Part shown: positions 15,401-59,408 of the stretch, one piece after another | Numbering within the stretch: the first letter of the stretch is position 1 | Layout: each line of letters starts with the position of its first letter | NCBI GenBank assembly: GCA_963693365.1 | Contig: CAVNZM010000005.1 | Location: 2,718,342 to 2,782,341, forward strand | Source of the DNA: Amoebidium appalachense | Lineage: Eukaryota > Protista > Ichthyosporea | Direction: 5' to 3' | DNA length: 64,000 nucleotides | The notes under the pieces: model-generated | What the model saw: the letters and a program-made list of their open reading frames with translations, nothing else | What the model was told of the DNA's origin: nothing | The model's database searches: none | Translations under genes and position numbers: made by a program

Positions 15401-18400
15401 CCTTGCCTCCCCCCCCCCCCCCCCCCCCACCACCACCACCACCACCCACCCGTCTCCCCCTCTTCCCCCCCCCCCCCCCCCCCACACACACACCCCACCC
15501 ACCCGTCCCCCCACCCTCACCCACCCCCTTACCTGTCGTGCAATCTCGGCCTGCTGCTGCTTGAACCGATCCACATACTGCTTCTGCCACTCCTCCATCT
15601 CGGCCTTTGGCTTTGCATCCTCCCCCTCCTCCTCCACTTTTACTCCCTGTTGCTGTGGCCTGACCTGTGGCCTTGGTCTTGGCCCACCCACCATCTGACC
15701 CATCTGGCCCCTTGGCCCTGGGTGCCGTGGGGGTCGTGTGCCGTCACGTCCAACTGGGTGCGCACCGGGGTGTGGGGGTACATTGCGACGCGCAAAGAAC
15801 GCCTGAGGATGGCGGGGCGGAGGTTAGAAAACTTGTGGTAGATAAGAAAAGCGGGCGGGCTGGAGGAAGGGCGGGGAAGAGGGGTGGGGGTTGGGGGGTT
15901 GGAGAAGATGTATTCATGAGAGGGTTGGAAGCATGGAGGAGACATCAAGGACAAAACACAAAACGTAACAAAAAAAAGGGAGAGGGTGGGATGGGGGGTG
16001 GGGGGGCAAAGCGTGTGTTATGGGAGTTAAAAACATGCATTCATAACGGACAACACAATGCTGAGTGCAAGCCACTGCATAATGAGCGCCAGCGGCAGCA
16101 GCCAGGGGAAGGGGAGGGGAGGGGGAGGGAGGGGGGCAGGACTGCAATGACTTGCATAATTTAGGGTGGTCGATGAGTGTTTTGAGGTGTGAGGTCCATG
16201 CACCCCAGCAATCTTGAAGTGCATGCATGCGGATGGAACGTGCCCGTACAAACAGGAAAAGAAATCTATGTCTGTGACTGTTTTTGTGGGTGGTTGGAGA
16301 TGGAAGAGCAGAGGGGTAGAGCAGGGGGCGGAGCTTGCCGGAGGGGGGGGGGGGGGAATCAAGGAGATGAGCTCACATGCAAGTGACACAAGCAATCCCC
16401 CTCTCCTCCCACCACACTAAACGACGACCATGCACATGAACCGTACACACACACAAGCCCACCCCCTGCCCTGATCGGCATATGTACACATACACACGAG
16501 CGTGCACACGCACACACACACACAATCAGACGGCTCCACCAACACACGAGACACACCCACCCAACACGCGCCTGCCGCCAACACACCCACCCACGCACGC
16601 ACACCCACCCACCTTGATAAACCTGTTGCCCAAAATAGCCTCCGGGTCCCTGTATGCCGTCTCAGCCTCCTCATTGTTACTGAACTGCACACGAGCAACA
16701 TCGGGCCTGCCGTTGTAATGCACCGTCACATTGACCACCGTGCCAAACTTACTGAAATATTCAGAAAGAACCCCCACCACATTCTGCCCAGGTTGCAGCC
16801 CCGTAATTTCAAGTTCCGTTGCCCTACCCGAACCCATTGGCCGCGGTGGGCGTGGGCCACCGAAATTTCCATCAGGGGGACCCATGGGTCGTGGGGGTGG
16901 GCCATGGCTGGGGTGGGGTGGTGGTGGTTGATGGGGGGTTCCATCAAGTGAGGCACGGTGGGGAGCCCTGGCCTGGGTAAGCCCTGGGTCCTCCGGCTGG
17001 TATTCATCGTCATCTGGGGGCATCTCCGGCCCCCTGCGATTGCCCAGAATTTCGCGCAAATCACGGACACCACCAAAATCGGGACGGGGTGGACCTCCTA
17101 GCGTATCCCTAAGATCCCCACGCCATCTCGGCCTGTCGTCCCGTTCAAAACGGCCGTGAAAACGGCCACCCCCGCGGTCACCGCGGAAATTCATATCGGG
17201 AGGTGGGGGTCCAAATCCTGGTGGGCCATTAGGCCCTGGGAATGGTGGGCCATGAGAGGGACGTGGAGGCGGGGGACCTTGCATAGGTGGCGGGCCGGAA
17301 AATGGAGGCACGGGGCCATTGAAGGAGTCGATGGGGAGTACCTGGGGGTTGACGTGCTCGTAGGGGCAATCGTCCCCCATCAGGCAGATGCCCTTGTTTT
17401 CATAATCCGGACACCGTTGTCGCATATTCCCCATGGGGGGGCCCATTCCCCTCATACCCATCATGCTGCCCCCCATGCCCATATGCTGCTGGGCCATGGG
17501 CCCCCCCATCATCCCTGGTCCCGGGCCATACCCCCCAGCCATCTGGTTCATTGGACCCCCCTGGATGCCCATGGGTGGGGGGCCCATATTGCCACCCATC
17601 ATGGGCCCAGGCCCACCCATGTAATTGCCCTGTTGTTGCTGCTGCTGCTGCTGCACGAGGGGTGCATATGTGCTGGTTGTTTCCTGCTGCCTGTTCGGGC
17701 GCTCAGTGGGTGCTGCATTCCCCCTCAGAGGTGAGGGCACATCCATGTCGTCTCGGCGATAATCCCTCCCATCTCCCCGATTACGCTTCCTCCGGCCCGA
17801 ATCATCGTCTGAATGCTGCCGCCCGTCTTCCTCAAACCCACGTTTGTATGATATCCTCGGGCTGCAGAAAGAGAATTCAGAACGGATACCTCCCTCTTAA
17901 ACTACCCCCACCCCCCCCCCCCCCCCCCCCCCGGGAGCCCTGCAGCCCACAGCCCCAGTCTCACCACCACCACACACCCACATACCACCTCTATAATCTC
18001 CCCTCCAACCAACCTATCCGAGAGAGGTTCTCCGTACCCCGAAACACCATTAGCCCTTGTTTCATAGAAACTCTGACACGCATCACCGTTCCAGTCTCGT
18101 CCTCTACCTCAACCGCACCCACACAAACATCCAGCCACTTGCTAAATGCTGCATAAAAGAAAGGACACCTGATTGCATCCCAATCCCCCCCCCCCCCCCC
18201 ACCCAGACACACACACAACACAAACCTGTGCCTGCGGCCCCTGCGTCTATCGTCCCCCTCATCCTCCCTGTCATACCTCCGCCTGCTATCTCCCCTCCCG
18301 TCCCCCCTGCTGTCACTCCTAGGCCGTGGCCTCTCATCCCTCGGCCTCTTCTCCTCCCTCCTCTCATCTCCCGATGGTGGGCCGGCCTTCGGCCTTTTCA

Positions 18401-57100: not shown

Positions 57101-59408
57101 GGGCTGCACCCAACCCCTGTCCCTTCCGTTCGGTGGTTACACACCACACGCTAGCCAAATAAAAACGGATTTGAAAAACACACATTTAACCCAAGCCCAA
57201 TGCGCGCACGCACACGCACGCACACACACACACACACACACACACACACACACACACACCACACGCACGCACACACACACACGCACACACACACACGCAC
57301 ACACACACACACACACACACAACTATCCCCCCCCCCCCCCCCCCCCCTGCCCGCACCCCCGCACGCGGAAGAGAAAGAAAAAAGAAAGAAAGGAAGAAGC
57401 TAAGGAAGGTGAGAAAGTTATAAATAGTCAATGGTTTTATATGTCACTCTCACACACGCATGCACACTCACACAACACCCACTGAGACACACAATGTCTA
57501 TCCAAATCCACACTTACACAATCCCCTATGGTTTGCACTCTGCATCGTGTTATTCTTTGTTTATGTGTACTTCGTACTTAATGATGCATTCAACCCCCCC
57601 CCCCCCCCCCCCCCCCCCCCCCCCCCCCCTTCACCTGCTCGTTAAACTAATGGCATCAACAACAGCAGATGTTGTCGATGGGCCCCCCACGTTGGAATGG
57701 AGACCACCGCCCACATACAGAGACCTGGATGCTCCAGAGGATTGTACGTCCCCCCCTTCACATTTCCACCAGATCCTTTCTGCTATGCATACATGCACAT
57801 ATGCACAGACAAACACACACACGGGTGCCGCAAGAGAAAGCACGTGGTTATTCCTGACCTGCCTCTAGCTCTGCCTGCACCCTAATCTTGCATATTCCCG
57901 TCGAGGCGTCTTCCTTCTCCTTCTTCCCCCCCTCCTTTCTTTTAAGGAAGGAATGAGGGGGGGGGGTGTATGTTTTTTTTTTTTTTTTTTTTGGGGGGGG
58001 GGGGGGGAGGGGGGAGGGGGGATAAAGAAGGGGGTTAGAGGGGGAAGGCAGAGTAAGAGGAGGGAGAGTAAGAAAAAGAGGCCCGTGACGAGCTATAATT
58101 CATTAAGGGGAGTTTCTGTGTTGCATCGCATATTTCTTGTTGACAAATCCCCTGTCAGTAATCCCCCCCCCCCCCCCCCCCCCCCGGCCTCAAGTCTGGC
58201 CCTACTCACATCCCCCCTTACACTTTGACACTCCTCATGCACCCCCTGAATCTTCATTCTTCTGCACCTCCCCCCCCCTCCCCCCCCCCCCCCCCCCCCC
58301 CACACCCCTCCCCCCATTCATACTGACATGGGTGACAGGGGTTGTCCCAAGTGAACGTCGTATTGACTACGTCCTTCAGGAATCCGGACTAGAAGAGGTA
58401 CATTTACCCACCCCCCCTTCCCCCCAAAGCACACACACACACAAACACACACACACACACACACACACACACACACACACACACACACACACACACACAC
58501 ACACACACACACACACACACACACACACACACACACACACACACACACACACACACAAACACACACAAACACACACACACACAAACACACACACACAAAC
58601 ACACACAAACACACACACACACACACACACACACACACACACACACACACACACACACACACACACACACACACACACACACACACACACACCACACTCA
58701 CACTCAATCACCCACTCACTCACTCACTCACTCACTTACCCACACACACACACACACACACACACACACACACACACACACACACACACACACACACACA
58801 CACACACACACACACTCACTCACACACTCACTCACTCACTCATACAAACACACGGGTTAAAGGGGGGGGGGGGGGGGGGGGGTCCTACACAGTTCGCTTT
58901 TGCCCCTGTTATTTCAAAGCAGTTTGTGTCGAAAGTAAAGAACATCCTACCCCCCCCCCCCCCCCTCCCCCTCTTCCCCCCTCACCCAGTTCTTTCATAG
59001 CAACATACTAAACCTGTTCATATTTCGGCCCTATGCCTATGGCAAATTGTGTGAACATTCAAAGCACGGTGGCAACTATTTAGTTGCCGAACATGTTTAA
59101 AAATCTCAACCACTGATTGGCTATGTATCATGCAGGTATCGGCATCAGTGATGACCGCGCTGACTGCCCACACGGTCTACTGGGCCTCTAAAGACACCGC
59201 CCTATTGGTCCTTGCATCCATCATAAAAACACGCTTCCCACGGGCATACTATAAACCCAACCCGGGGTTAAAAAACCCCCGCTCACTCTCCGTAACCGAA
59301 TTTGCTCCCCCAGACCGGGCTGTCACAGAAACGCAAACGGAGAAAGGGGTTACAAGGGTGAAAGGTGCTGCTGCTGAAGCAACGGGGGAGGTTAAAAGTC
59401 ACGAGTAG
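48160..59408 (+). CDS. PH-domain + DDHD-domain intracellular phospholipase A1-like protein, 13 exons
   Basis: Exons 48160-48339, 49129-49269, 49914-50081, 50917-51055, 51977-52056 (GC donor), 52667-52770, 53833-53991, 54728-54821, 55657-55826, 56607-56782, 57669-57743, 58339-58397, 59136-59408. PH motifs: [41 protein letters not shown]. Lipase motifs: [27 protein letters not shown] motifs: [32 protein letters not shown]. Confidence 0.9.
51213..51350 (+). mobile_element. 5'-truncated family B copy, retaining only the CUGAUGA strand
   Basis: AACCCCCCTGATGATGGGCTCTGTTCAAGT..CCATATTTCCAACCCTCTAAAGCATA then poly(C); homologous to 23649-23785. Confidence 0.8.
53130..53630. repeat. C-rich compound tandem repeat, 3 core copies
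   Basis: CCCACAGTCCCTCTC(T/G)TAGCCTCTCCCCCGTTCCCCCAACGCCGTCCCCC near 53136, 53336 and 53479. Confidence 0.85.
55357..55438 (+). mobile_element. 5'-truncated family A (A3-type) copy
   Basis: Reverse complement of about 43525-43606, followed by a C-run. Lies in a DDHD-gene intron. Confidence 0.8.
57527..57593 (+). mobile_element. 5'-truncated, more diverged family A copy
   Basis: TATGGTTTGCACTCTGCATCGTGTTATT..GTGTACTTCGTACTT..GCATTCAA followed by poly(C). Confidence 0.75.

Follow-up and report, generated by a model that had tools for sequence, protein, structure and literature searches.

Among the Penelope-like retroelements, Naiads and most Chlamys are described as lacking canonical hammerhead ribozymes (Craig et al. 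2021, PMC8557442), and the passages of that paper give no ribozyme fold for Naiads, only the flags 'HHR_core' and 'HHR_half_core' for core motifs that fitted no descriptor. Non-LTR retrozymes are short non-coding hammerhead units of 150-450 bp arranged head-to-tail, proposed to be non-autonomous derivatives of Penelope-like pLTRs (PMC7229834; 10.64898/2026.07.22.740005). For hammerheads in permuted block orders, Eckert et al. 2023 (PMC10085705) assume, in the passages covered here, an uninterruptible C block, and their tested SGC and CSG examples are IMG/M contigs and not genomic retroelements; their work includes two CSG examples. Hammerhead variants with additional helices have also been reported (PMC13725137, citing Weinberg et al. 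2015). Here we analysed two families of short repeats, A and B, in 64,000 nucleotides of Amoebidium appalachense (contig CAVNZM010000005.1 of assembly GCA_963693365.1, positions 2,718,342 to 2,782,341; this whole stretch is called the window). They are short and non-coding, have fixed 3' ends in C-runs and are probably non-autonomous Penelope-like retroelements, copied by a Naiad-type reverse transcriptase (RT), that carry a rearranged hammerhead predicted to self-cleave.

All eight stretches of families A and B that a sequence-only reading of the window had listed were present at the coordinates it gave (Table 1). Its 3' ends all stood, whereas three 5' ends had to be corrected, those of A2 (to 40024), A3 (to about 43800) and B1 (from about 23567). 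The continuation of A3 was seen in contigs of public sequencing runs, whose loose ends at 39866 match it. The 5' end of A1 is 42 nt shorter than that of A2, and the idea that both copies share identical 5' ends was dropped since A2 runs on to 40024. Self-BLAST gave identities of 98.2% for A1/A2 across 397 bp, 97.6% for A3/A4, 86.8% for A3/A5, 85% for B1/B2 and 80% for B1/B3, while A1 and A3 shared 77%, limited to the middle ~180 bp. Three tail types were distinguished (A1/A2, A3/A4/A5 and B1/B2/B3), so that the family A of the earlier reading splits into two subfamilies with different tails. Families A and B are related, the ribozyme region being common to both, and other B copies extend 5' with a stretch resembling the upstream hairpin of A (loose ends at 23568). 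The complete ribozyme domain is found in A1, A2 and A3 only; B1 is without the upstream part, B2 has the CUGAUGA block alone, and no ribozyme part exists in A4, A5 and B3.

Read in element orientation, the 3' end directly adjoins 11-36 C in seven of the eight copies and a C-rich tract at B3, and within the tail types the copies are 439/397, 276/82/67 and 222/138/68 bp long. This agrees with the common 3' end abutting poly(C) and the varying 5' length described before. At a threshold of at least 12 C per 20 nt, the 3' flank is C-rich in all eight copies, a count that is partly circular, as the copies were picked that way; the 5' flank is C-rich in six of eight, compared with 7.7% of window positions (binomial 5e-6, in a test that is not fully independent, C-runs being clustered), which supports insertion at C/G runs. 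The copies sit inside C-tracts. The absence of open reading frames and of terminal inverted repeats was also confirmed: the longest ATG-started frame of A2 (439 bp) has 38 aa in sense and 62 aa on the opposite strand, and no inverted repeat links both ends of A1, A2 or B1.

The window as a whole contains 174 C or G homopolymers of at least 10 nt, versus 34 of A or T, about 3600 bases together. Most of these C/G runs do not adjoin the elements studied. An element-like end precedes nine of the 125 C-runs of at least 15, and six of the nine belong to known copies; the suggestion that the elements spread homopolymers, with 6/125 such runs abutting a known copy, is unsupported. In the 3' flank of A1 (34932-34991), a G-run beside a C-run forms a 29-bp inverted repeat with no spacer.

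Table 1. Positions in the window of the repeat copies, the predicted ribozyme domains and the host genes.
Feature	Position	Strand	Description
Copy A1	34992..35388	-	397 bp; C24 at 3' end, C17 one base off 5' end
Copy A2	39586..40024	-	439 bp, nearly whole ~452-nt unit; C15 at 3' end
Copy A3	43525..43800	-	second A subfamily, ~276 bp, 5'-truncated; C19 at 3' end, C-run at 5' end
Copy A4	55357..55438	+	82-bp 3' tail of A3 subfamily, within C-rich tract
Copy A5	57527..57593	+	67-bp 3' tail, then C36
Copy B1	23567..23788	+	~222 bp, truncated just 3' of upstream stem II strand; then C29
Copy B1, motifs	23589-23591; from 23656	+	GUU site; CUGAUGA
Copy B2	51213..51350	+	138 bp, begins at internal C-run before CUGAUGA; then C30
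Copy B3	15908..15975	-	68-bp older tail, C-rich tract
A1 split-core hammerhead domain	35105..35265	-	predicted cut after 35192 (GUU)
A1 domain, parts	from 35228; from 35160; from 35126	-	stem II 5' strand; GAAA; CUGAGGA; with closing helix P0 and hairpin P4
A2 split-core hammerhead domain	39699..39859	-	predicted cut after 39786
A3 split-core hammerhead domain	43610..43764	-	predicted cut after 43693
PAS kinase gene	29194-42300	-	intron-rich
RBM26/27-like gene	13878-18924	-	intron-rich
DDHD-domain gene	49900-59230	+	weak PH match upstream
Ankyrin-repeat exon	3193-3459	+	

The extent of the elements was investigated with sequencing-run contigs aligned to the A2 and B1 stretches (five different runs out of 24). 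From run X9, 9309 contigs aligned to A2 and 1535 to B1, with unique flanks at a depth of ~13-20; families A and B are very abundant, and summed contig depth, which is not a copy number, was not used as one. A head-to-tail joint leading from 40024 to 39579, with six letters between, was present in all three DNA runs (X9, X14 and X17), where one contig carries 73 letters on the short side. This joint defines a head-to-tail unit of ~452 nt with C7 plus 6 nt at the junction. No family B joint was seen among the joints listed. Along A2, summed depth is about six times lower at the 5' end than in the 3' part, and loose ends gather in both families at the internal C-run before CUGAnGA (23 contigs at 39722 for A; 10 each at 23651 and 23652 for B), where B2 starts too. 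One X9 contig that spans a flank diverges from the element at 40024, where 7 of its letters are unmatched; this hints weakly at an empty site. In run X12, summed depth was low near the predicted cut (5004 at 39781 vs 20194 and 20687 on either side); this dip comes from the contigs of one study at a variable site, and nothing is drawn from it. Run X17, aligned to 39100-40600 and 23000-23950, had few copies (32 family A and 5 family B contigs, vs hundreds to thousands in the other DNA runs) with the same joint. Amplification of the families looks lineage-specific.

The joint bears on the explanation that survives best beside our own, namely that the copies are merely 3' remnants of long autonomous Penelope-like elements and that no short mobile unit exists. 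In passages of PMC8557442, Naiads show strong 5' truncation, 3' ends in very large numbers and, as a normal feature, partial tandems; loose ends of the A3 subfamily and of B also extend beyond 30 letters, as this explanation would have it. Against it, three runs show the A1/A2 5' end rejoining a 3' end at a single fixed position, no loose end occurs at 40024 among the loose ends listed, and the 439 bp of A2 hold no long frame. As a general account it is therefore unlikely, but A3-type and B copies may be remnants of this kind. The earlier description of the repeats as non-autonomous elements or 3' remnants keeps its short, non-coding part, while A1/A2 at least represent a complete short unit and not only a remnant. 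With its ~452 nt, one hammerhead per unit and head-to-tail copies, the A1/A2 unit resembles the non-LTR retrozymes, which, in the sources cited above, carry type I hammerheads, form tandem repeats and are reported to be depleted from introns. The window copies differ from them in being single (8/8), truncated, flanked by C-runs and without type I hammerheads, and the four copies that can be placed relative to genes are all intronic and sense.

In the ribozyme region, the cut site (GUU), GAAA and CUGAnGA follow one another in the order that Eckert et al. call SGC, which is non-circular. A descriptor covering six block orders matched A1, A2, A3 and B1 only, all as SGC, with no match in 60 shuffles, and a split-core descriptor matched A1, A2 and A3 only, with none in 100 shuffled windows; both were written after the sequences had been seen, which flatters the shuffle counts. 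The six-order descriptor detected no canonical block order (types I-III) in the window, and Rfam returned no ribozyme family on A2, nor among the 150 of 253 window matches listed. The ribozyme, with its non-circular block order, is not a canonical hammerhead and not a typical Penelope one.

Stem III comprises 9-13 pairs, and both of its strands differ between families. For stem II, full pairing is reached with a strand located upstream of the cut site, and this strand varies with its partner: GACCC/GGGUC in A1 and A2 (5/5 Watson-Crick), GACCUA/UAGGUC in A3 (6/6, this 6-bp stem being changed on both sides relative to A1) and GACUC/GAGUC in a loose end of B. Helix P0 (3 + 7-8 bp) joins the strand after CUGAGGA to the 5' beginning of the domain and leads via the 8-9 bp hairpin P4 into stem II. 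Because of these compensatory changes the stem II partner was placed upstream, and in the resulting model the core is therefore opened after A9, between A9 and G10.1, and closed by two extra helices. In A1 and A2, nested folding recovered stem III, P4 and the greater part of P0; in A3, P4 was folded otherwise. Another model that was considered, a plain SGC fold enclosed by one extra stem, was abandoned for the upstream stem II pairing. In each family the linker between the cut site and GAAA is palindromic, at 35167-35187 and 43670-43689 (10 nt) and, in B1, at 23595-23612 (6 nt); the palindromes differ in sequence between families and could allow dimers.

Next to be weighed is a plain type-SGC hammerhead, in which stem II is built from the strand immediately following CUGAnGA, with 2 nt inserted. 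The SGC matches of the six-order descriptor correspond to in-block stems of 6, 6, 4 and 6 bp in A1, A2, A3 and B1, and such a fold would work in the truncated B1 too. This pairing is, however, wobble-rich, with G-U in three of the six pairs in A1/A2, its 5' strand is invariant, and in A3 it is broken at pair 5; the upstream strand pairs fully and covaries with its partner in three families. We consider the plain SGC fold improbable. The split-core fold shares with type SGC the order of cut site, GAAA and CUGAnGA with stems I and III, and the U after A9 seen in SGC variants (PMC10085705, in part). It differs in that the core is split after A9, that the preferred stem II strand lies upstream, with a weaker in-block pairing present, and that a palindromic hairpin region connects the cut site to GAAA, in place of the ~3 nt given in passages of the same paper.

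A similar layout was then recognised in Naiads. In the supplement of PMC8557442, CGAAAC plus one base occurs 79 times, and every occurrence was inspected by eye. The split-core layout was seen in the 3' ends of at least 7 of 54 Naiad consensus sequences (three from Acropora, Pomphorhynchus, two from Octopus, and one with a weak stem I), and complete type-CSG hammerheads with 5-12 bp stems in at least seven more, from nematodes and one spider (File S5, the records before Naiad-1_Nbra, Naiad-2_Nbra, Naiad-3_Nbra, Hcon, Asuum, Lpol and one more); both counts are lower bounds, as motifs broken at line ends were missed, and the names follow file order. A metagenome scan based on short motifs from the Acropora tail yielded 120 loci, belonging to two related coral-type families. 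Among the 102 loci with enough flank (18 with short flanks were dropped), the upstream stem II partner pairs at 6/6 in 70 and lies right after P4 in 61. No downstream stem II partner exists in 108 of the 120, which also speaks against the plain SGC fold. Compensatory pairs separate the two coral-type families in P0 (33 vs 33) and stem I (58 vs 47). The stem II, downstream-partner and compensatory features all lay outside the search pattern of the scan. The base of P4, GCUC...GGGU, is common to coral-type loci and window copies, and the strict split-core descriptor passes 36 of the 120. Ten coral-type loci were aligned; they had been chosen for their match to the structure, and their 98.7% pairing is not evidence.

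Of the 120 coral-type loci, three contain RT motifs, which lie 490-740 nt upstream. Long homologs of the coral-locus RT bear an N-terminal GIY-YIG in three of the four scanned, which is the Naiad order, while Pfam gave no label to two short coral-locus RT pieces. Named hosts of the RT homologs were corals only, with no unicellular host (120 of 200 listed). Scanning metagenomes with the core motifs of A and B instead gave no locus, and a viral scan with core motifs gave four loci without upstream blocks, which were judged to be chance matches. The window elements and Naiads, according to passages of PMC8557442, share a fixed 3' end, 5' truncation, partial tandems, a simple-repeat target and the lack of a canonical hammerhead. 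In contrast to Naiads, the window elements have no open reading frame (GIY-YIG, CxC motif, RT), sit in (C)n and not (TA)n, show no sequence-level match by a covariance model built from coral-type copies and may have a non-animal host. The link between the window elements and Naiads rests on layout, not sequence. In the literature covered, from which most subscription papers were absent, no description of the split-core layout or of permuted hammerheads in Naiads was found; the layout was likewise not found in passages of PMC10162972, PMC7936874 and PMC6765202, and literature on unicellular holozoans made no mention of Penelope among the matches listed.

The partner could instead be a Chlamys-type or other non-Naiad RT. 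The statement in the earlier reading that Chlamys target (C)n and (CA)n agrees with passages of PMC8557442, which record (C)n targeting for many Chlamys families and for no Naiad. Chlamys/MRC1 elements also resemble the window copies in 5' truncation and in the head-to-tail copies that non-autonomous forms make. They differ in their hosts, which belong to the green lineage and slime mould, and the split-core layout was absent by eye from the Chlamys passages among the 79 CGAAAC occurrences and from the Chlamys 3' ends inspected, motifs broken at line ends being missed. As to the host of the window, two minus-strand exons match human PAS kinase best (E 1.3e-12 and 4.4e-7), and the RBM26/27-like gene matches fish, tick and fungi. 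PAS kinase is not known from green algae. From these sequences, the host genes look opisthokont and not green-algal. Because the host genes look opisthokont and the layout matches Naiad tails, and not the Chlamys tails inspected, a Naiad-type partner was preferred, the association with Chlamys was given up, and a Chlamys-type RT appears quite improbable. Least probable is a DNA-level repeat (a miniature inverted-repeat transposable element (MITE), a Helitron or a satellite recombining between C-runs) with a leftover ribozyme: C-runs flanking most copies could promote recombination and target duplications are unreadable, but terminal inverted repeats are lacking, one end is fixed and the other variable, and an RNA fold with compensatory changes is conserved.

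Several results weigh against a split-core ribozyme carried by Penelope-like elements with a Naiad-type partner. Stem I has only 3-4 bp. Stems I and II are absent from the nested minimum-energy folds, in which some of their strands have other partners, and folding z-scores for the core region amount to 0.11, -1.38 and -0.18. The compensations in coral-type loci represent one event each between two related families; a covariance model built from the 10 coral-type copies missed the window copies, giving three weak matches elsewhere (E 2.8-6.7), and MAFFT failed to align the upstream parts. Where a target is listed for Naiads in the passages of PMC8557442, it is mostly (TA)n and never (C)n. The head-to-tail joint was not found in run X12, which is RNA only by guess, and target-site duplications cannot be read within C-runs. 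Scanning of 195 window segments detected neither RT nor GIY-YIG; because these are lacking and the elements have no open reading frame, the latter are not members of the Naiads, at most dependants of them.

Taken with the ends and flanks, which support the earlier proposal of Penelope-like short non-coding retroelements with a fixed 3' end, 5' truncation and insertion at C/G runs, the following mechanism may be proposed. A tandem copy or a host intron would be transcribed, and the ribozyme would cut at GUU, ~170-200 nt from the 3' end, to release ~452-nt units, which might be joined into circles, as known from retrozymes (PMC7229834), or left as partly uncut multimers. Such circles or multimers as templates would explain why copies run through the cut site: A1, A2, A3 and B1 span the predicted cut, and the template was therefore presumably uncut or re-joined. 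A GIY-YIG endonuclease would nick the G strand of a genomic C/G run, whose G-rich 3' end could pair with C7 of the RNA and prime reverse transcription; priming on C7 would fix the 3' end. Synthesis would stop early, often finishing by pairing at the internal C-run, which would produce the 5' truncation. We infer GUU cleavage, target-primed reverse transcription by a Naiad-type enzyme and G-strand priming on C7. The elements would then work like a non-LTR retrozyme or a non-autonomous Penelope-like element, a known kind (10.64898/2026.07.22.740005, in part). A more far-reaching version is possible, and we hold it only tentatively: an active split-core hammerhead would give a ~452-nt retrozyme-like circular RNA whose C7 serves as template for telomerase-style G-run priming by a Naiad-type RT in a unicellular animal relative, and the same ribozyme, together with the CSG forms, would be the missing Naiad hammerhead.

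Concerning gene context, A1 and A2 lie between exons of the PAS kinase gene, B3 between exons of the RBM26-like gene and A5 between exons of the DDHD-domain gene, all in sense. The C-run strand background in the genes concerned is 12/42, 12/42, 1/7 and 9/13, which puts the chance of a sense-only result at ~0.008 by a hand calculation on four copies. Apart from families A and B, the window has local repeats at 24059-24659, 53135-53522 and 63794-64000, comprising a 52-bp sequence in three exact copies and a 44-bp sequence present three times, in both cases with C-runs between the copies, and two ~90-bp stretches of 80% identity. A self-inverted stretch of ~240 bp at 6134-6371, 71% complementary, is possibly an old MITE-like element.

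Craig et al. suggest, in passages of PMC8557442, that the lack of canonical hammerheads does not hinder, or even helps, the spread of Naiads; a permuted hammerhead hidden in Naiad tails would, if true, reverse this reading. The six permutations described by Eckert et al. presuppose an unbroken C block, and the split-core fold would extend that scheme. The window elements are likely non-autonomous and bring their own C7, with which G-rich targets could pair; this is relevant to the common ancestry of telomerase and Penelope-like RTs. Sense intronic copies of an RNA predicted to self-cleave could also affect the transcripts of their host.

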